DNA from: a virus
Length of the DNA: 64,000 nucleotides
Reading direction: 5' to 3' (one strand)
UHGV virus genome: UHGV-0104313
Position 1 is the stretch's first letter. Each line of letters begins with the position of its first letter. Below the pieces are notes generated by a model. That model did not search any database and was not told the origin of the DNA. It worked only from the letters and a program-made list of their open reading frames with translations. Both the position numbers and the translations under genes were made by a program. Positions 3,048 to 51,673 of the stretch are shown here, piece by piece.

Positions 3048-4091
3048 TTATCTAACACTCGACGAATGACTTGTGATAACGCCCACTCCAAGCGCGTAAT
3101 CAAAGAACAATCGTTGATGCATCGCCAACCTACCGTGCGTCTTCTCCCAATTATCGCGGTCACGCTCAATATCACGCTGGCATGACTGGCACAGAGGAAT
3201 TGCGTAAATGTCATGCGCGCATAATCGACTATGACGAACGATATAAGGCGTAATGTGAGCGCCAGCTCCCGCAGCTCCACACCCACAGCACGGACGGGAA
3301 GCAACAAAGTCCATGTACTCAGGTAATTTTAGCGATCGCAGTTTTGGTATTTTGAAATGCGCCATGCCAGGGTCGGAGTCAACATCCACAGGGCATACTT
3401 TTGCACGCATCGGCGCGGCGCGTTCTTCCATCATCTGAACATATGCTGTAGCGCGATCGTCATACGGGCGAATATCCGCCTCTTTCAGAGGTCCGCTATC
3501 CTGCGGAGTAGCCTTCATCTTATTTATTGATATGCGGCAGACTTCTTCCGGCATCAGGTGCATCATGTTGCGCATGAAAGCCCACCAGCACAGCTCCTGA
3601 ATACTTAAATCATGGCTATTTGAAAGGCCCATTTCCTGACGGGCGACATCCAGTATCCAGTTAACGCGATTATTGTGCAGCGTTTCTTTCAGCTCATTAA
3701 AACCACGCATCCGGTAATGGTTATCGTGATGCCAGCACAACAACACCGCGCTATTGTCTCGTTCAGCGTGGACAATATGATTGTCACACCAACTACGATC
3801 TGCGGCCTGGCATTGACCCTCTTTCCTACGCAACCACGCCACCAGCGCGTCAATTCCGCCAATACGGCGAAACAGTTCATCGCTGTTAAAAAACGGCTGC
3901 AACGCCTCATTTGTTGCCATGGTTTGCTCGGTAACAACGAGGCCGTCTTCCATGTGCTCGATTAACTCACGCGGCACCGGCTCCATAATAAATTTACGGC
4001 CAGCCTCCACCAGCTTTCTGACCTCCTGATCCACTTTGAACGTGGCGAGGCCAAGCTCTTTCTGTACAAAGGGAGTAATTACGGCTTTCAC
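3048..4091 (-). CDS. hypothetical protein, 347 aa, C-terminal Cys-rich cluster (CCGCG...C-x2-C), possible Zn-binding/HNH-like
   Basis: ORF track; long ORF with GTG start; Cys/His cluster near C-terminus. Confidence 0.5.
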
Positions 4092-4302: not shown

Positions 4303-4578
4303 CTACTCCGCAGAACCATACAATCTACGTAGCGTGGTAGCAGTAGATGCAGATATCGCCCTTAAAACCTCCTCCTTACTTACATCACTGCGGGAGAGGA
4401 TTTCAGAAGGCGATATTTCCTTTAACGACTTTTGCTTCTCTTTGCAGTTCTCGACCAGTTCCGCAGGAATAACAAACCTGCTATCAATCGGCACAAGTTC
4501 ATCAAGCGTTTGTTTGGGTACGTTAAACGTAGGATTCTTGAACACCGCAGATTCGGTTCTTAAGTTAATTTTCGACAT
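4303..4578 (-). CDS. hypothetical 91-aa protein downstream of doc
   Basis: ORF track; compact spacing inside the doc-proximal operon. Confidence 0.4.
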   Translation of the reverse strand: MSKINLRTESAVFKNPTFNVPKQTLDELVPIDSRFVIPAELVENCKEKQKSLKEISPSEILSRSDVSKEEVLRAISASTATTLRRLYGSAE

Positions 4579-4597
4579 TGTTTCGTAACTCCACTAC

Positions 4598-4978
4598 TCA
4601 AGTCTTGGAACCATATAGTTCACGTAGCTTTTCTGCTACTGAAGATACGGCGATTTCACCAGTCGCAGCGCCTACAGTAAGGTCTGCCAGTTCAGGTGAA
4701 TCAAATACCTGCACCCCGTTACGGCGTAGAAATAGCAGCGCACTGTTTAGCGCGGTACGCTTATTGGCATCATTGAATATATGCCCTCTCGCCGTAGCCA
4801 CCAGGTAGGTGGCGGAGACTTCGAAAAGGTCGGTGATCTCTTCGTAGGCAACTCTGGCCTGAACTCTCCCGATAATGGCCTCTGCCCTACCCGGATCTGA
4901 CATTCCCGGCAGGCCGCCGTAGCGGCTTATATTCGCATCATGAAGCGCAATAAGTTCTTCCGGTGATATATGCCTCAT
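4598..4978 (-). CDS. doc: Doc toxin (Fic/Doc family), 126 aa
   Basis: Translation [22 protein letters not shown]...[11 protein letters not shown] recognised as Doc; start overlaps phd stop. Confidence 0.9.
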
Positions 4979-5199
4979 TATCGGTTAACCAGTTCCTTGT
5001 TGGTGGAGTCCAGGGTGTCAAACAGGGATGCAAATTCAGCATCCAGCGCCGCTTTTTTGTAGGCTTCGAAAGTAGCCTTGCTGACAATTACTGCTGGCTC
5101 ACGGCCTCTGCGGGTGATTTCAACCTCTTCCCCGGCTTCAACATTGTTGAGCACTTCAGAAAGGTTGCCACGCGCGGTACGGAAGTTAATGGATTGCAT
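4978..5199 (-). CDS. phd: Phd antitoxin, 73 aa from second Met
   Basis: Translation [40 protein letters not shown] recognised as Phd; ORF track start trimmed to the conserved Met. Confidence 0.9.
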
Positions 5200-5271
5200 A
5201 AACACCTCGTGTACTCGTTATGTGTACACAATTATAAACTTCACAGGCATAAAGCACCAGCACTTTGCAGC

Positions 5272-5661
5272 TTAAATAACCGGACAATCATCAAATTCCC
5301 CACTTCGGGCATCATTGATGACATGAGTGATCACACCAAAAACAGCATTACTGCCCGTGTATCCATCGTCATCTACTGGTAACGCCTCTTTCTTCCCGGT
5401 GCTTAAGTCCTCCAGGTGCTGGCGCGGATACTTCCTGTATCTCTTTATGCGATATTCACCCTCCATAGCGCACACAAGCAGAGAACCATCAACCGGAGTA
5501 AGCGAGGAATCAACCACCAGCAAAGCACCCTGCAATATTCCCTCACGGTGATGGCTATCAGCTGCCCGCATGAAGTAGGTCGCTGAAGGATGTCTAATTA
5601 TCTGCTGATCAAGAGAAATTCGGCTTTCAACATAATCCGCCGCAGGAGAAGGGAAGCCCAT
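5272..5661 (-). CDS. humD: UmuD'-like S24 peptidase-fold protein (HumD-like), 129 aa
   Basis: MGFPSPAADYVE...HPSATYF...DS...IKRY aligns to E. coli UmuD from Gly25 onward; Ser/Lys dyad positions retained; no umuC partner adjacent. Confidence 0.85.
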   Translation of the reverse strand: MGFPSPAADYVESRISLDQQIIRHPSATYFMRAADSHHREGILQGALLVVDSSLTPVDGSLLVCAMEGEYRIKRYRKYPRQHLEDLSTGKKEALPVDDDGYTGSNAVFGVITHVINDARSGEFDDCPVI

Positions 5662-5679
5662 AGCGTTTTACCTCAATAA

Positions 5680-5699
5680 TACTGTTTATTCATACAGTA
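5680..5699. promoter_or_regulatory. LexA (SOS) box TACTGTATGAATAAACAGTA
   Basis: Perfect CTGT-N8-ACAG palindrome ~19 bp upstream of the humD start. Confidence 0.7.
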
Positions 5700-5784
5700 T
5701 ACATTGAAAAGGCATAGTTTGTGAAAGCGGGGTTTGTAGGCGCGCCACGCTGGGGGCTAATCACATTTCTCCCCCATCTTGCCG

Positions 5785-6036
5785 TTATTTTTTTGGTGCA
5801 TCCTCGTTCTGATACACCGGATCGCTCCCTTTTGGCAACTGGAGGCTTAACTGCCGATAGTGCCGTAACCGTTCCATGAAATAGGTGCGCAGATTCTCTG
5901 GTTGCTCGCGGGCTACCTGTTCAGCTATGACAGGTATGTTCAATCGCTCTTTGTACGCCACACCGCTGGCAGCCAGATCAACGTTAACCTTATCCCGTTC
6001 TTCCTGACTTTTAGCTGCAATATTCCAATCGTGCAT
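5785..6036 (-). CDS. hot: DNA polymerase III theta-subunit (HolE) homolog, ~83 aa
   Basis: [43 protein letters not shown] aligns to E. coli HolE; start trimmed to MHDW. Confidence 0.7.
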
Positions 6037-6485
6037 ATCAAATCCCATCCAGAACAATTGCGTAACGACTATTATTTAACCAGCAAAGTAACTTTTAATT
6101 TTTTTTCTTTTCCCATTGATTTTTGTGCACAGCTTATCTGCCTTGCCGTGCGCAGAATCAACTTTTTTCTTCCTGATTTATCCACAAAGTTATGCACTTG
6201 CAAGAGGGCCATTTTCTAAATATTGTGATGTTTCACAAATGAAATGAATTTTGATTAATGAAGATAAGGAGAAAATTTGAGATGCAATCATGACGTTAAT
6301 AGATAGGGTCTGCATTACAGACCCCATCCGCATCAAGGAATTAGCCGTTCCCTGATGTTGTTCCGAAAACATGTGCCGTAAGCTCACGTTAACGACTTTC
6401 TTTCACCGAATCCAACTATATAGGGGTTGGGTTTCTACGTCAACGTGAGCAAGTGCTCCTTTACATTTGACAAGGAACCACCTTA

Positions 6486-37370: not shown

Positions 37371-38567
37371 ATGAGTGATTCCAGCCAGCTTCACAAGGTT
37401 GCTCAAAGAGCAAACAGAATGCTCAATGTTCTGACTGAACAAGTACAGTTGCAAAAGGATGAGCTACACGCGAACGAGTTTTACCAGGTCTATGCGAAAG
37501 CGGCACTGGCAAAATTGCCTCTACTGACTCGAGCGAACGTTGACTATGCCGTAAGTGAAATGGAAGAAAAGGGTTATGTTTTCGATAAACGCCCTGCTGG
37601 CTCTTCAATGAAATATGCGATGTCAATTCAGAACATCATTGACATATATGAACATCGCGGAGTGCCAAAATACCGGGATCGCTACAGCGAAGCGTATGTG
37701 ATTTTCATCTCCAATCTTAAAGGCGGTGTGTCAAAAACTGTATCGACGGTTTCTCTGGCGCATGCAATGCGTGCTCATCCTCATCTTCTGATGGAAGATT
37801 TAAGGATTCTGGTTATTGACCTTGATCCGCAATCTTCAGCAACGATGTTTTTAAGCCATAAACACTCTATTGGTATCGTAAACGCAACATCTGCACAGGC
37901 TATGTTGCAGAATGTAAGCCGTGAAGAGCTGTTAGAGGAGTTTATTGTTCCTTCTGTTGTACCTGGGGTTGACGTTATGCCTGCGTCGATTGACGATGCC
38001 TTTATTGCATCCGATTGGAGAGAGCTGTGCAATGAGCATCTACCGGGTCAGAACATCCATGCAGTCCTGAAAGAAAATGTGATTGATAAGCTGAAGAGCG
38101 ATTATGACTTTATCCTCGTTGATAGTGGTCCTCACCTTGACGCCTTCCTGAAAAATGCTTTGGCCTCGGCCAATATACTGTTTACACCTCTGCCGCCTGC
38201 AACGGTTGATTTCCACTCATCGCTTAAATACGTTGCCCGCCTTCCTGAGTTGGTGAAACTCATTTCGGATGAAGGCTGCGAGTGTCAGCTTGCAACTAAC
38301 ATTGGTTTTATGTCCAAGTTGAGTAACAAGGCAGACCATAAGTATTGCCATAGCCTGGCTAAAGAAGTGTTCGGTGGGGATATGCTTGATGTCGTCCTCC
38401 CTCGCCTTGACGGTTTTGAACGCTGCGGCGAGTCTTTTGACACTGTTATTTCAGCTAACCCGGCAACGTATGTTGGTAGTGCTGATGCATTGAAGAACGC
38501 GCGAATTGCCGCGGAAGATTTTGCTAAAGCAGTTTTTGACCGTATTGAATTTATCAGATCTAACTGA
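37371..38567 (+). CDS. parA: partition ATPase ParA, 398 aa
   Basis: N-terminus MSDSSQLHKVAQRANRMLNVLTEQ recognised as P1 ParA; deviant Walker A KGGVSKT. Confidence 0.9.
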   Translation: MSDSSQLHKVAQRANRMLNVLTEQVQLQKDELHANEFYQVYAKAALAKLPLLTRANVDYAVSEMEEKGYVFDKRPAGSSMKYAMSIQNIIDIYEHRGVPKYRDRYSEAYVIFISNLKGGVSKTVSTVSLAHAMRAHPHLLMEDLRILVIDLDPQSSATMFLSHKHSIGIVNATSAQAMLQNVSREELLEEFIVPSVVPGVDVMPASIDDAFIASDWRELCNEHLPGQNIHAVLKENVIDKLKSDYDFILVDSGPHLDAFLKNALASANILFTPLPPATVDFHSSLKYVARLPELVKLISDEGCECQLATNIGFMSKLSNKADHKYCHSLAKEVFGGDMLDVVLPRLDGFERCGESFDTVISANPATYVGSADALKNARIAAEDFAKAVFDRIEFIRSN

Positions 38568-38583
38568 GGAGTAAGAAACCCCC

Positions 38584-39585
38584 ATGTCAAAGAAAAACAG
38601 ACCAACAATTGGGCGAACCCTTAATCCTTCAATATTAAGCGGATTTGATAGTTCTTCAGCCTCTGGCGATCGAGTCGAGCAGGTATTCAAGTTATCAACT
38701 GGTCGCCAGGCCACATTTATTGAAGAGGTAATACCTCCGAACCAGGTAGAAAGCGATACCTTTGTTGATCAGCATAACAACGGGCGTGACCAGGCATCTC
38801 TTACGCCAAAATCATTAAAAAGTATCCGAAGCACTATTAAGCATCAGCAATTTTACCCTGCAATAGGTGTTAGACGGGCTACAGGGAAAATTGAAATTTT
38901 GGATGGTTCCCGGCGTCGAGCTTCTGCCATCTTAGAGAACGTAGGGTTGCGGGTTTTAGTCACGGACCAGGAGATCAGCGTTCAGGAAGCGCAAAATTTA
39001 GCGAAAGACGTTCAGACAGCATTGCAGCACAGCATTCGAGAAATAGGTCTGCGTTTGATGCGAATGAAAAATGATGGGATGAGTCAGAAGGATATTGCAG
39101 CCAAAGAAGGGCTGTCTCAGGCGAAGGTCACGCGTGCTCTCCAGGCAGCGAGTGCTCCGGAAGAATTAGTCGCCCTTTTCCCTGTTCAGTCGGAATTAAC
39201 CTTTTCGGACTACAAAACGCTTTGTGCTGTTGGCGACGAAATGGGGAACAAGAATTTAGAGTTTGATCAGCTTATTCAAAACATATCCCCGGAAATAAAC
39301 GACATCTTATCCATTGAAGAAATGGCCGAAGATGAAGTTAAAAATAAAATCCTGCGCTTGATAACAAAGGAAGCCTCACTACTCACGGATAAAGGTTCTA
39401 AAGATAAGTCCGTAGTTACTGAATTATGGAAATTTGAGGACAAGGATCGCTTTGCAAGGAAGCGCGTGAAAGGCCGTGCATTTTCTTATGAGTTTAATCG
39501 ACTTTCAAAAGAGCTACAGGAAGAACTCGACAGGATGATTGGGCATATCCTTAGAAAGAGCCTCGATAAAAAGCCGAAGCCTTAA
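38584..39585 (+). CDS. parB: partition protein ParB, 333 aa
   Basis: N-terminus MSKKNRPTIGRTLNPSILSGFDSS recognised as P1 ParB; directly downstream of parA. Confidence 0.9.
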   Translation: MSKKNRPTIGRTLNPSILSGFDSSSASGDRVEQVFKLSTGRQATFIEEVIPPNQVESDTFVDQHNNGRDQASLTPKSLKSIRSTIKHQQFYPAIGVRRATGKIEILDGSRRRASAILENVGLRVLVTDQEISVQEAQNLAKDVQTALQHSIREIGLRLMRMKNDGMSQKDIAAKEGLSQAKVTRALQAASAPEELVALFPVQSELTFSDYKTLCAVGDEMGNKNLEFDQLIQNISPEINDILSIEEMAEDEVKNKILRLITKEASLLTDKGSKDKSVVTELWKFEDKDRFARKRVKGRAFSYEFNRLSKELQEELDRMIGHILRKSLDKKPKP

Positions 39586-46550: not shown

Positions 46551-47606
46551 CTATAAACTCTGAACAAGACGTTCGATTGCTGCACCATATCTTTCTAATG
46601 GTTCATTATTGATTTGTGGCTCAGTGTCATGGATCTGATATCTGCCTGGTTTTATATCAAATAGAGGTCTTCCTAGATGGGAAGATACTATAGCTACGGA
46701 ATGGTTATCTGGCACAGTAAACGTTTTTAAATTTCCGCCTTGGAACGCTGTTGGTTTATTCGTCCGCAGATTTTCAGCTCTATCCCTGATTTCGTCGAAC
46801 ATTGCCGAAAACGCTTTACTTGCTCGTTTGTCATACTCTGTCGAACGATTAAAAACTAGAGAATGAATGACAGGAACCGCTAGACCAAACTGTTGACACC
46901 GATCGTAAAAGTTAACAGAACGATAATCGTTTTGTACTCCAACGCCATAAACCAACTGGCTTAGGTTATCCACTGCTCGAGCCGAAGAACCATCACTTGA
47001 GCAAGGTATTATAATTGCATTTGCTGCTATCAGTGATAGTTCGGTATAGGCAGAGAAACTGGGGTTGCAATCAATAAAGCAAATGGTTTCTTCGATACCT
47101 TGTTGTTGTGCACATGCAACAAGCAAATCTCGTAGCCACAGGTGGATGCTTTTCCATGAGTCAACTGGTAAGTTTACGCTGCTTAACTGATTGATTACTT
47201 GCGCCTGAACTTCCAGGCTTGGGTCGCCTGCAATCAAAAATACATTGTCAGGGACATGCCCGTTAATTTCAGAGACATGAATTAAGAAACTTGTTTCTGA
47301 ACCGGTAAGCATGTGGGGGCTGCGAGTTCTTCTGTCAAAGTACCCACCGACAGTTTTTCGTTGTTGAATTAAGTTCGCGAGGTTAGCAGCACCAGTACCG
47401 TTACCGCCGAGCAATATTTCAGATAAGTTAGCCTGCGGGCACATATCTGCAAAAATAATACGCTTTTCTGGATTTTGCCTTGCGTATTCACAGGCCATAG
47501 CGAAAGATAAGTATGTCTTTCCTACGCCACCTTTATTATTCCAAATAGCATACGATTTCATGGTATCCCCGGCGTTATCTGCTGTTTGTGTGCCAGCATA
47601 AGTCAT
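46551..47606 (-). CDS. ParA/MinD-family P-loop ATPase-like protein, 351 aa
   Basis: Deviant Walker A NKGGVGKT near N-terminus; GGAG RBS upstream. Confidence 0.5.
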   Translation of the reverse strand: MTYAGTQTADNAGDTMKSYAIWNNKGGVGKTYLSFAMACEYARQNPEKRIIFADMCPQANLSEILLGGNGTGAANLANLIQQRKTVGGYFDRRTRSPHMLTGSETSFLIHVSEINGHVPDNVFLIAGDPSLEVQAQVINQLSSVNLPVDSWKSIHLWLRDLLVACAQQQGIEETICFIDCNPSFSAYTELSLIAANAIIIPCSSDGSSARAVDNLSQLVYGVGVQNDYRSVNFYDRCQQFGLAVPVIHSLVFNRSTEYDKRASKAFSAMFDEIRDRAENLRTNKPTAFQGGNLKTFTVPDNHSVAIVSSHLGRPLFDIKPGRYQIHDTEPQINNEPLERYGAAIERLVQSL

Positions 47607-49711: not shown

Positions 49712-51121
49712 TTAACCTATTGCTACTGGTTTTAACAAACCAGCATCAAGTAGCTTGCGAGTTAACCACTGCTGGCCTTTACCCGTTAATTGGGGCGTCA
49801 GCCGTATCTGGTAGCCATTTTCATCATCCAGCACCACTTCTTTCACCGTGAAATACCCGGCGTTAATGTACTGCTGGCGCGGTACGTTTTTGCGCGCACC
49901 AAAAGCCATGAGAATGCCGTTCTGGCGCAACCATGAGAAAAGGGCGTTTTGCTTAAGTCCAACGACCTTTGCAAAGTTCCCGATCAGGATTCCATTAGCC
50001 GCTGATACCCGGTCGGCAAAATCGACTTTAGGGGCTGCGGCCACCAGCTGTTGATTTAGCTGGTGGGTTTTCTGTTCCAGTAGCTGCTTTTGTTCAGCCA
50101 GCTCGGCAGCCAGGCGCAGAGCTTCGGGAAGCGTCTGGGGGATTGCGACCGGTTGCTGTTCTTTTTGCCGGAAGTAGCTGTCTTCCAGTTTTTCAAAGAA
50201 TGCCCACGCTTGCTCTGTGTCTACGATCTTAGACATGCGTGCCGCTCCGCGTTCGGTCCAGAGTATTAAGGATCTGGTCTTGGGGGAAATTTGCAACTCG
50301 CTAAAAGATAGTCGCAAACTTTTTATCTCATCTCCTTTGATTTTAAAGAAGTGTTTACCCTCTACAAATCGTTCTTCATTGCGATTGTAGTTCTGCTGAA
50401 TACGAGTAGGTGTAGTGCCATACCCTCTAGCAAGAGTCTCGGTTGTCACGACGCGTACTCCCTGCCATTCCAGAACGGGAATTTCATCAGGATGATTTTC
50501 AACATTTATAGGTTCCAATGCCTGAATCATGGTATGTAGCGAACGGCGGACCGCTTTTGACTCGCGCGCGGCAACTCGCAGGGCTTGTTTGTAGGTCATG
50601 GTTATGACAACCATAGGCGTACCGCCACCTGGCGGCACGGTTGCACTTTTTGTGTAACCGTCCTCACCTTCTAATTCGTCGAGTATTTTTTCGATGAATT
50701 TGTTGTTCCGAACCTCTGGTTCCCCACATAACTTACGCGCTTCATTGACCATCTTTAACAGTGTCTGGCTGTCGATTGTGTCTCCAGTGTTGGAGATAAC
50801 ATTCACAGCTGGTGATGGCGTAGCTGAAGCAACAGGTGCTGTTTTTTCAACATTTAAATTATTACCGGTCATTCTATGTGCCTCCTTTCTCATTTCTGCT
50901 GCCACTGTTGCGTAACGTAGACGTCCTTGTTCAATCAAATAATCCCTGATCTCGGCTATCAGTAGCCTGTTGATCACAGCCTTATCTGTTCGGGTATAAA
51001 AACGTCTGGTTATCATGAAATAGTTAGCAATTGCGCCGGGGATCTCCCGTGTCGGCATACAGGCAGTATGCAAGGCGATCGCTTCGGCTATTTCATTACG
51101 GGTGACGAGAGGTGTTTTCAT
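49712..51121 (-). CDS. antirepressor (Ant-like), single 469-codon frame; N-terminal ~75 aa may correspond to an Icd-like segment
   Basis: C-terminal ~120 aa paralogous to KilA C-terminus; position downstream of the c4-like locus. Confidence 0.55.
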   Translation of the reverse strand: MKTPLVTRNEIAEAIALHTACMPTREIPGAIANYFMITRRFYTRTDKAVINRLLIAEIRDYLIEQGRLRYATVAAEMRKEAHRMTGNNLNVEKTAPVASATPSPAVNVISNTGDTIDSQTLLKMVNEARKLCGEPEVRNNKFIEKILDELEGEDGYTKSATVPPGGGTPMVVITMTYKQALRVAARESKAVRRSLHTMIQALEPINVENHPDEIPVLEWQGVRVVTTETLARGYGTTPTRIQQNYNRNEERFVEGKHFFKIKGDEIKSLRLSFSELQISPKTRSLILWTERGAARMSKIVDTEQAWAFFEKLEDSYFRQKEQQPVAIPQTLPEALRLAAELAEQKQLLEQKTHQLNQQLVAAAPKVDFADRVSAANGILIGNFAKVVGLKQNALFSWLRQNGILMAFGARKNVPRQQYINAGYFTVKEVVLDDENGYQIRLTPQLTGKGQQWLTRKLLDAGLLKPVAIG

Positions 51122-51379: not shown

Positions 51380-51590
51380 GAGGTTCCAATCTCAATGGCG
51401 GTAGCACTGACTGGGTTGGAACTACCGGCGCAAAAGGGAACCGGCCTGCCTTTCGGCAGCCCAGCCAGCACTACCATTGATCTCGGAGCTATGTGCTACG
51501 TATGGTTGTGCGATGGCATGACACAAAAAAAGACGCTTTTGGCGTCTATGTCGCCTTTTGCATTATCCGGGGTTCCAATCCCGGCATCCG
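51380..51590 (-). ncRNA. c4-like antisense RNA locus (boundaries not resolved)
   Basis: Two direct copies of GGTTCCAATC (~51382, ~51571) bracket a structured segment carrying the complementary GTTCCAA (~51413); lies between operator and ant start. Confidence 0.3.
51512..51537 (-). terminator. minus-strand hairpin plus U-run (AGACGCCAAAAGCGTCT TTTTTTT in minus sense)
   Basis: Stem-loop followed by T7 on the minus strand inside the immunity leader. Confidence 0.4.
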
Positions 51591-51673
51591 TTTTACTAAG
51601 ATGCCTGTTTAGGATAAACCGAAAATGCATTAGCACGCAAGCAAGTTAATGTAGCATATGAAGCTAAAAAAAT

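Follow-up and report, generated by a model that had tools for sequence, protein, structure and literature searches.

The window, a stretch of 64 kb of viral DNA (UHGV virus genome UHGV-0104313), carries near its beginning the toxin-antitoxin genes phd and doc, followed upstream by humD and hot; all genes of the locus lie on the minus strand. The genes and control elements are the following:

4598-4978, minus strand: doc, 126-aa Doc toxin, a Fic-fold kinase with the motif HIFNDANKR at residues 66-74
4978-5199, minus strand: phd, 73-aa Phd antitoxin counted from the ATG (the mechanically called ORF uses the GTG at 5205 as its start)
5231-5259, minus strand: putative equivalent of the sigma-70 promoter Pphd, placed by homology to P1 positions 3637-3665 (L001 numbering)
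5272-5661, minus strand: humD, 129 aa beginning with MGFPSPAADYVE, UmuD' homologue that starts at the equivalent of UmuD Gly25
5671-5674, minus strand: GAGG ribosome-binding site, 9 nt before the humD ATG, read from the sequence and kept in P1, P7, and 813R1
5680-5699, no strand assigned: LexA (SOS) box TACTGTTTATTCATACAGTA, exact TACTGT-N8-ACAGTA, the same site being annotated in the P1 and P7 records
5696-5725, minus strand: putative promoter TTCACA-18-TATACT, a pattern match from a consensus scan (10 of 12 matches)
5715-5781, no strand assigned: 67-bp segment unrelated to P1, in place of the 573-bp lxr (local blastn break 5714/5782, corresponding to L001 4121/4818)
5785-6036, minus strand: hot, encoding an 83-aa homologue (counted from the ATG) of the theta subunit of DNA polymerase III
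6071-6094, minus strand: putative equivalent of the promoter LPhot (-10 and -22 elements), placed by homology to P1 positions 5107-5130 (L001 numbering)

Comparison of the locus with known genomes revealed 96% DNA identity and a shared gene order with phage P1 (NC_005856), and an offset of 1594 between P1 (L001 numbering) and window coordinates was taken from this collinear blastn match. The P1 record annotates the same genes together with a "LexA binding site in the regulatory region of lxr and humD". The locus is 100% identical to its counterparts in the Escherichia coli plasmids CP088832, NZ_KU980950 (IncY), and NZ_MG196293; altogether, 1434 plasmid records match the whole or some part of it, with at least 80% of it present in 123 of these.

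The original prediction, made from the raw sequence, placed a phd-doc addiction pair next to humD, and this assignment agrees with the profile and structure matches of both proteins. Doc is matched by the Pfam Fic/DOC family (3e-9), by TIGR01550 DOC_P1 (129.7 bits), and by the PDB entry 3k33 "Death on curing protein" (E = 1e-74), and Phd by the Pfam family PhdYeFM_antitox (2.8e-13) and by TIGR01552. The P1 Phd/Doc system has PDB entries 3K33, 3DD7, and 3KH2. Phd is 100% identical to P1 Phd. Doc is 95% identical to P1 Doc; the two are identical over residues 1-109, including the intact Fic motif, and differ only in the variant last ~17 residues. The pair shows the characteristic features of a type II Phd/Doc toxin-antitoxin system: (i) the toxin has the Fic motif HxFx[DN][AG]NKR, (ii) a gene for a Phd/YefM antitoxin is located just upstream, and (iii) the stop of phd overlaps the start of doc, by 1 nt, both lying at 4978. 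It is the plasmid-addiction pair of P1, in which the labile Phd neutralises the Doc kinase, the two proteins' own promoter is repressed by Phd, and plasmid-free cells are poisoned. Downstream of doc lies an inserted 91-aa ORF, which ends in TLRRLYGSAE, the Doc tail of the P1 type. A tblastn search found no homologues of this ORF in phage records and only 10 near-identical copies in plasmids; having no distant relatives, it offers no functional clue.

Start and LexA box of humD

HumD is 98% identical to P1 HumD (P1_gp103, YP_006569), from which it differs by two substitutions, L21I and C103G, and 99% identical to P7 HumD. It matches the curated equivalog model of the HumD family, NCBIfam NF051876, with 220.3 bits against a cut-off of 120, its residues 1-129 covering profile positions 1-129, whereas in PHROG 811 "UmuD-like" (5.9e-55) only profile positions 21-140 are covered. 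An AF2 model built from a 40-sequence alignment of close relatives was unusable (mean pLDDT 46), and the fold was assigned from the sequence match to the solved UmuD'. E. coli UmuD' (1UMU/1AY9; Pol V subunit in 8GMT) has a homologous S24 C-terminal domain, ~44% identical to HumD, and the same Gly start.

It had been proposed that humD begins at the equivalent of the RecA-mediated cleavage site of UmuD and encodes the already activated UmuD' form. The alignment with UmuD and UmuD' places the truncation point exactly there: Gly2 of HumD aligns with Gly25 of full-length UmuD (8gmt_B, residues 25-136) and with residue 1 of UmuD' (1umu_A; E = 4.5e-23). As is characteristic of the family, HumD lacks the N-terminal arm, and it lacks the Cys24-Gly25 cleavage site because the protein starts after that site. 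An activated form also agrees with what has been published for the nearly identical P1 HumD. The frame upstream of humD reads ...LLR*NA-M, that is, the third codon ahead of the ATG is a TAA, and further stops lie beyond it. Because of these in-frame stops no start can restore the N-terminal arm, and an upstream start giving a full UmuD was rejected. The longer HumD homologues in databases were attributed to over-called starts, their extensions being translated LexA box.

The predicted perfect LexA box upstream of humD was likewise recovered, as an exact match at 5680-5699; 18 nt separate it from the humD ATG, the proposed distance of 19 bp being counted from the edge of the box to the A. The box TACTGTTTATTCATACAGTA has all 12 specified bases, an AT-rich spacer, and an intact CTG-N10-CAG core. 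The exact pattern TACTGT-N8-ACAGTA occurs once in the 64 kb and in none of 100 shuffles. The other CTGT-N8-ACAG match in the window (29084-29099) was rejected as a LexA box: it has a GC-rich spacer, and two matches found against 0.8 expected are at the level of chance. Two further matches with two mismatches are also within chance.

Upstream of humD homologues, a LexA-type box was found at all nine phage loci examined, 34-64 nt away from the gene. Boxes of the form CTGT-N8-ACAG precede the homologues in P1, P7, N15, phiKO2, HK639, Hafnia yong1, Aeromonas pAEv1818 (with one core mismatch), and BTP1, and CTG-N10-CAG boxes were found in two prophage lineages. These phage HumD homologues are 45-70% identical, yet all begin with M/V-G-F-P-S-P-A. 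In P1-like plasmids, humD has been called LexA-regulated (PMC9603915).

The -10-like hexamer of the putative promoter (5701-5696) shares 4 nt with the LexA box; it is TATACT in the window and in P7 and TGTACT in P1. The P1 record predicts the promoter PhumD ~480 bp upstream, inside lxr, a gene that is divergent from humD in P1 and absent from the window; the proximal humD promoter is thus a consensus match only. LexA probably represses this proximal promoter.

Predicted action of HumD and features of its family

As in the original prediction, humD has no umuC partner. No Y-family (IMS-type) polymerase domain was found among the 21 ORFs of at least 294 aa in the window, which rules out a umuC elsewhere among these long ORFs, and the neighbours of humD are phd and hot. 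Likewise, no umuC was found beside humD in the other phages and prophages examined or in the P1 annotation. As described in papers citing McLenigan et al. (1999; J Bacteriol 181:7005), P1 HumD complements UmuD', dimerises, and binds UmuC and RecA; by the same citing papers, a pre-activated HumD without umuC had been published for P1 in 1999.

The proposed pathway of HumD action would start in the lysogen, where LexA bound to the box, which overlaps the -10 and the start region of the proximal promoter, would keep humD switched off. DNA damage would remove LexA and lead to HumD synthesis. Since the protein starts at the Gly25-equivalent residue, it would need no RecA-mediated cleavage, and could at once dimerise and join the host UmuC as a surrogate UmuD' for Pol V-type lesion bypass, skipping the normal delay. 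The benefit for the phage would probably be earlier lesion bypass. The native expression of HumD is reportedly poor, and good complementation requires a high-copy plasmid; bulk mutagenesis may therefore not be what the protein naturally serves.

Some features of humD are shared by its relatives, whereas others set it apart from umuD. P1 humD has the same start, LexA box position, and phd-doc neighbours, and also lacks umuC. N15 gp26, phiKO2 gp23, HK639 UmuD, and the prophage HumD family of Citrobacter, Salmonella, and Enterobacter resemble it in the truncated start, the C-terminal tail, the LexA-type box, and the lack of umuC. In contrast to the window, the stand-alone humD genes of these other phages are located at prophage ends or by partition genes and not by phd-doc and hot, and many are divergently paired with dinI, which encodes a RecA-filament modulator; no dinI homologue was found in the window. 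Unlike E. coli UmuD', HumD is made directly, is not part of a umuC operon, lacks the GDSM context, and has a 12-residue acidic C-terminal extension.

Ser and Lys are present in HumD at the positions of UmuD Ser60 and Lys97 (Ser36 and Lys73 of HumD), but the motif around the serine is A-D-S-H in place of G-D-S-M. Thus, HumD does not have the dyad in GDSM context together with a cleavage site that would mark an active self-cleaving S24 peptidase. The dyad is not conserved across the HumD family: in homologues, the residues found in place of the Ser are T, T, T, Y, or Q, and those aligned with the Lys are K, K, M, R, or R. The combination of xSM and K is kept in none of the 37 natural truncated representatives (query included), as opposed to 37 of the 61 proteins with an N-terminal arm.

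HumD ends with a family-specific tail, SGEFDDCPVI (residues 120-129). In the form EFDDCPV[ILM]-COOH, this tail is conserved in six phage homologues, whereas E. coli UmuD' lacks it. Its conservation reaches at least 90% among 40 close homologues, equal to that of the N-terminus, and ~110 of 120 close homologues have it. Among representatives at 50% identity, it was found in 12 of the 38 truncated proteins (query included) versus one of the 61 with an N-terminal arm. Some distant relatives end with EFDDTPF or LPF. The SSB tip MDFDDDIPF has a terminal hydrophobic residue that is required, along with a Pro and acidic residues (PMC10164576). A literature search for the string FDDCPV gave no match, and one for the whole word "humD" gave nearly exclusively unrelated matches.

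Loss of the dyad and conservation of the tail hint at functions beyond simple UmuD' mimicry. HumD could be mainly a modulator and not a Pol V cofactor, with the tail serving either as a peptide for docking or competition, perhaps like the SSB tip, or as a degradation tag, and could tune RecA filaments, SSB partners, or the availability of UmuC in the SOS response. The concentration of the tail in truncated HumD proteins, its likeness to the SSB tip and the PF endings of some relatives, the unconserved dyad, and the frequent neighbourhood of dinI are all consistent with such a role, but we regard it as unlikely: the SSB-tip likeness is short and differs in register (CPVI versus DIPF), and the UmuD' complementation published for P1 HumD, as related by citing papers, is already a sufficient function. 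It is even more speculative that stand-alone HumD-type proteins form a distinct phage class defined by a decayed S24 dyad and an acidic [GA]EFDDCPV[ILM]-COOH tail (with PF-ending variants) resembling the SSB tip DFDDDIPF-COOH. These traits do correlate among the homologues compared. If such a class existed, the tail might dock HumD, together with UmuC, on the pockets that bind the SSB tip or compete with SSB there. Together with the phage dinI that often accompanies it under one common LexA box, HumD would then let the phage control lesion bypass itself.

hot and its relation to humD

The gene beside humD had been described as a homologue of HolE (theta), and this holds. Hot matches the Pfam family DNA_pol3_theta PF06440 (4.6e-34, 116 bits against 34.6) and NF008207 (104.6 against 97); 78 of its 83 residues (94%) are identical to the P1 "Hot protein" of PDB entries 1se7 and 2ido (E = 2.2e-48), and it is also similar to E. 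coli theta (1du2, E = 2.1e-19). The five substitutions relative to P1 Hot (1SE7; epsilon186-HOT complex 2IDO) are Y2H and four others within the last 11 residues. An alternative hot ATG annotated in P1 corresponds to window position 6048, and position 6057, the end of the originally described stretch, corresponds to an in-frame upstream TTG. P1 Hot substitutes for theta, and the structure of the epsilon186:HOT complex has been described (PMC2528190). By analogy with this nearly identical protein, the Hot protein of the window would bind and stabilise the epsilon proofreading subunit of the host Pol III. Its gene would be driven by the P1 late promoter LPhot: the region upstream of hot is 99% identical to that of P1, and the LPhot elements are identical.

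The stretch between humD and hot differs between genomes: it contains the 573-bp lxr in P1 and two other ORFs plus IS903 in P7, whereas in the window the two genes are separated by 123 nt, and hot adjoins the humD control region. The lxr gene is replaced likewise in phage 813R1 and plasmid U2501. The direct adjacency of humD and hot is due to the absence of lxr from this lineage. A 52-aa plus-strand ORF (5721-5879) was considered as an lxr remnant and treated as spurious; it has no Pfam or PHROG match and overlaps hot in antisense.

The comparison gives no support to the proposal that humD and hot make up a compact module directed at the host replisome. In P1, each of the two is annotated with a control of its own, the LexA site for humD and LPhot for hot; their adjacency is lineage-specific; and humD occurs without hot in N15, phiKO2, HK639, Hafnia yong1, Aeromonas pAEv1818, and chromosomal prophages. 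The same observations bear on a related possibility, namely, that hot and humD are one co-expressed unit in which transcripts from LPhot would continue past hot into humD-phd-doc and LexA would be a roadblock. The common strand and the 123-nt gap would permit this, and a consensus scan detected nothing resembling a terminator in the hot-humD and humD-phd intervals. However, each gene has retained its own control element, other genes take the place of lxr in P7, hot is not near humD in other phages, and hot-lxr-humD is listed as a highly variable region among P1-like plasmids (PMC9603915). We consider co-expression improbable and prefer separate functions for the two genes.

The locus in P1-like phage-plasmids

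Taken together, the window very probably represents a P1-like IncY phage-plasmid of E. coli, and the locus its known pdcA-doc-phd-humD-LexA box-hot region in a common variant lacking lxr, with three separate functions carried by phd-doc, humD, and hot. A stand-alone humD under predicted LexA control is part of this joint best explanation, and no evidence contradicts the identification of the locus. The missing canonical GDSM (ADSH here) and the absence of umuC could suggest that humD is what remains of a umuDC operon in decay, or a full-length umuD with a mis-called start. This is difficult to believe, since the sequence, within the limits of sequence evidence, already refutes it: the frame is closed by stops shortly before the ATG, an intact 125-130-aa ORF with the same start is present in eight of nine phages at 45-100% identity, 101 of 120 close homologues start with MGFPSPA, the curated equivalog model has exactly 129 positions, and activity of P1 HumD is on record in the citing papers.

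The locus was already known and is a standard, well-described part of P1 biology. Its publications run from Phd/Doc (1993) and HumD (1999) to the P1 genome (2004) and Hot (2004-2006); the earlier reading of the raw sequence was accurate for the gene identities and for the central idea of an SOS-boxed, ready-made UmuD' form lacking umuC. In P1, humD, hot, phd, and doc are each non-essential for lytic growth, as determined by CRISPRi (PMC10695390). P1-like phage-plasmids are common in E. coli of clinical and animal origin, and the practical interest of the locus is modest: such elements carry what appears to be a LexA-controlled, cleavage-independent Pol V cofactor, which bears on stress-induced mutagenesis under DNA-damaging antibiotics.

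Genes of the region and their counterparts in P1

The genes assigned in the original prediction to positions 4598-6057 (doc, phd, humD and hot) all lie on the minus strand of the window, and their identities were confirmed by both Pfam and NCBIfam.

Features of the region and its flank
4303-4578, minus strand: 91-aa ORF, matching PHROG 31462 over its full length
4598-4978, minus strand: doc, 126 aa; Pfam Fic/DOC, NCBIfam DOC_P1
4978-5199, minus strand: phd, 73 aa; Pfam PhdYeFM_antitox, NCBIfam phd_fam
5272-5661, minus strand: humD, 129 aa, MGFPSPAADYVE...; Pfam Peptidase_S24
5680-5699: LexA box, TACTGTTTATTCATACAGTA, 18 nt from the humD ATG
5725-5696: promoter-like site TTCACA-18-TATACT, consensus match only
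5785-6036, minus strand: hot, 83 aa counted from ATG (the mechanically called ORF extends to a TTG at 6057); Pfam DNA_pol3_theta (4.6e-34), NCBIfam Pol III theta

The phd stop overlaps the doc start at position 4978. HumD belongs to the NCBIfam equivalog NF051876 'HumD family translesion DNA polymerase' (220 bits versus a cut-off of 120, residues 1-129 of 129), and several solved structures exist for Doc.

Sequence identity of the stretch is 96% to phage P1 (NC_005856) and 98-99% to phage vB_EcoM-813R1, and it reaches 100% with the E. coli plasmids CP088832, NZ_KU980950 (U2501, IncY, non-mobilizable) and NZ_MG196293. The P1 record gives the order pdcB, pdcA, doc, phd, the promoter Pphd, humD, LexA site, lxr, hot, and the late promoter LPhot; it notes that humD 'functionally complements E. 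coli UmuD'' and labels a 'LexA binding site in the regulatory region of lxr and humD', and the P7 record is annotated likewise. HumD is 98% identical to its P1 and 99% to its P7 counterpart, Phd and Doc are 100% and 95% identical to those of P1, and Hot shares 78 of 83 residues with P1 Hot. The humD-phd-doc genes are a recognised cluster of P1-like phage-plasmids, where hot-lxr-humD is among the highly variable regions (PMC9603915), and in a CRISPRi screen, P1 lytic growth required none of hot, lxr, humD, phd and doc (PMC10695390). The region was read correctly and is already known.

In P1, lxr (573 bp, annotated as 'LexA regulated function') is present and divergent from humD, whereas in the window it is absent and replaced by an unrelated 67-bp segment (5715-5781), so that the end of hot is only 123 nt upstream of humD. 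This lxr-less layout is common to phage 813R1, plasmid U2501, and more than 100 plasmid records. Compared with P1 and 813R1, the window has an insertion of approximately 250 bp (4358-4607) that separates pdcA from doc and creates the 91-aa ORF. This ORF had no match in Pfam or NCBIfam, is known from only 10 P1-like plasmids (E. coli, E. albertii), and was absent from the phage records searched. Its final ten residues, TLRRLYGSAE, are those of the P1 Doc tail (P1 Doc ends ...EISVSSVADTLRRLYGSAE), whereas Doc of the window has a variant C-terminus (doc 3' end, 4598-4650); therefore, the recombination junction through which the ORF was acquired lies inside the doc 3' end.

Elsewhere in the window, Rfam matched a C4 antisense RNA (51394-51481, minus strand, 76.7 bits) and, just upstream of it, an isrK-family RNA (51526-51604, minus strand, 58.3 bits), both preceding an antirepressor ORF (49712-51121); this order fits the P1 immI region. 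Three minus-strand tRNA genes (26625-26700, 28328-28403 and 28406-28481) have a CAT anticodon (Met per ARAGORN), Thr-TGT and Asn-GTT, respectively, in keeping with the three tRNA genes of P1. Besides the parA-parB pair (37371-39585), there is a second ParA-like ATPase ORF (46551-47606, minus strand, 351 aa, AAA_31/CbiA).

Truncated HumD and its LexA box

In alignments with solved structures, Gly2 of HumD corresponds to Gly25 of full-length UmuD (8gmt_B, 25-136) and to the first residue of UmuD' (1umu_A, E = 4.5e-23), in agreement with the predicted start at the cleaved form. No in-frame upstream start that would restore the UmuD N-terminus was found: the upstream translation reads ...LLR*NA-M, with a TAA three codons 5' of the ATG and more stops beyond, and therefore the truncation stands. 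The claim that a umuC partner is missing also held, as no Y-family polymerase was found among the 21 ORFs of at least 294 aa in the window, which include pacA, pdcB (DUF968), a DnaB-like helicase (ban), a double methyltransferase (dmt), RdgC, RepA, ParA/ParB, the antirepressor, an SLT-domain giant protein, and baseplate proteins. The logic of the HumD prediction is right. McLenigan et al. reportedly described HumD as a protein of UmuD' size, without a umuC partner and poorly expressed natively, that complements in recA430 and delta-umuDC backgrounds, dimerises, and binds UmuC and RecA filaments.

The perfect LexA box predicted upstream of humD was recovered as an exact TACTGT-N8-ACAGTA, which occurs once in the 64 kb and in none of 100 shuffles; looser LexA-box patterns in the window gave counts within the range of chance. 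Apart from the box, the pattern CTGT-N8-ACAG has a single further match (29084-29099, CTGTCGCGGCTAACAG; 0.8 expected by chance), immediately outside the dmt ORF and with a spacer rich in GC; it is unlikely to be a LexA site. The -10 hexamer of the promoter-like site shares 4 nt with the LexA box, the usual layout of SOS operators, here seen as a consensus match only. The predicted P1 promoter PhumD sits inside lxr and is missing from the window; thus, humD must be transcribed from the proximal promoter-like site or by transcripts continuing from hot, and the LexA box serves humD alone. A consensus scan found no terminator-like site between hot and humD.

In the plasmid prophage, LexA bound at 5680-5699 would block the proximal humD promoter, and DNA damage would relieve this block via RecA*-stimulated LexA self-cleavage and lead to humD transcription, as supported by conservation of the box. 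HumD, which needs no processing, would then dimerise and join SOS-induced host UmuC for Pol V-like lesion bypass; such activity has been published for P1 HumD (98% identical), and time would be gained by skipping the UmuD-to-UmuD' delay.

Gene context of hot and humD

The proposal that hot and humD form a compact module aimed at the replisome was not upheld, as comparative gene order argues against it. The two genes are separated by lxr in P1, and by two other ORFs and IS903 in P7. No hot was found near the humD homologue in N15, phiKO2, HK639, Hafnia phage yong1, Aeromonas phage pAEv1818, or the Citrobacter and Salmonella prophages, where humD stands alone beside tail-fibre, partition or integrase genes. 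The recurrent partner of humD is a divergent dinI homologue around a LexA-type box, and this pair constitutes a recurrent SOS 'moron' cassette. Divergent humD/dinI pairs with CTG-N10-CAG boxes were observed in phiKO2 (stretch L006, 1181-1884) and in the Citrobacter and Salmonella prophages (L011, 3439-4390; L014, 3674-4390). DinI restrains RecA-mediated UmuD cleavage, and its pairing with a pre-cleaved UmuD' is suggestive; no dinI was found in the window.

The P1 late promoter region is retained by hot at 99% identity. Given these separate contexts, the recurring dinI partner, and the conserved late promoter region of hot, we interpret the region as a chance juxtaposition of three independent accessory functions rather than as a module. 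Hot, known for theta substitution (Chikova and Schaaper 2005) and from structures 1SE7 and 2IDO (PMC2528190), would be made late from LPhot and stabilise host epsilon in Pol III, as published for P1 Hot, and Phd/Doc would kill or arrest plasmid-losing cells, as also published.

Protease site and C-terminal tail of the HumD family

The humD start M/V-G-F-P-S-P-A is found at nine phage loci (proteins 45-100% identical), each with a CTGT-N8-ACAG box 34-64 nt upstream (one mismatch in the Aeromonas phage); the BTP1 copy of humD is frameshifted. By comparison, this conservation lends good support to control by LexA and to the view that selection favours the truncated form. Of the 120 close homologues taken from databases, 101 begin with MGFPSPA, and the longer ones are over-called starts reading through the box. 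In six phage proteins, the UmuD Ser60 position is occupied by S, T, T, T, Y and Q, and the Lys97 position by K, K, K, M, R and R; judging by these residues, the protease dyad is decayed in the family.

The truncated class has a C-terminal extension, ...INDxRSGEFDDCPV[ILM], that is absent from UmuD' and shows conservation of at least 90% in 40 close homologues; its tail SGEFDDCPV[ILM], specific to truncated HumD-type proteins, is placed at HumD residues 118-129 (window 5272-5310). The wider set of 99 complete sequences was made up of the query and 97 of the 50%-identity representatives, with E. coli UmuD' included manually. With classes assigned by our own regular expressions (armed, N-terminal arm of at least 13 residues) in a set that includes fragments, xSM and Lys are retained in 37 of 61 armed proteins versus none of 37 naturally truncated ones, and the tail is present in 12 of 38 truncated and one of 61 armed sequences. 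In the truncated HumD-type proteins to which this acidic tail is specific, the residues at the catalytic Ser/Lys positions vary (HumD-homologue alignments A7 and A8). The AF2 model of HumD has a pLDDT of 46, too low to inform on the tail. Partner proteins of SSB recognise its C-terminal tip, MDFDDDIPF, by the hydrophobic residue at its end, the Pro and the Asp residues (PMC10164576). The HumD tail appears to resemble this tip in a different register, which is a lead rather than a result. The one aspect that might be new is what the conserved HumD tail does and how this relates to decay of the protease site.
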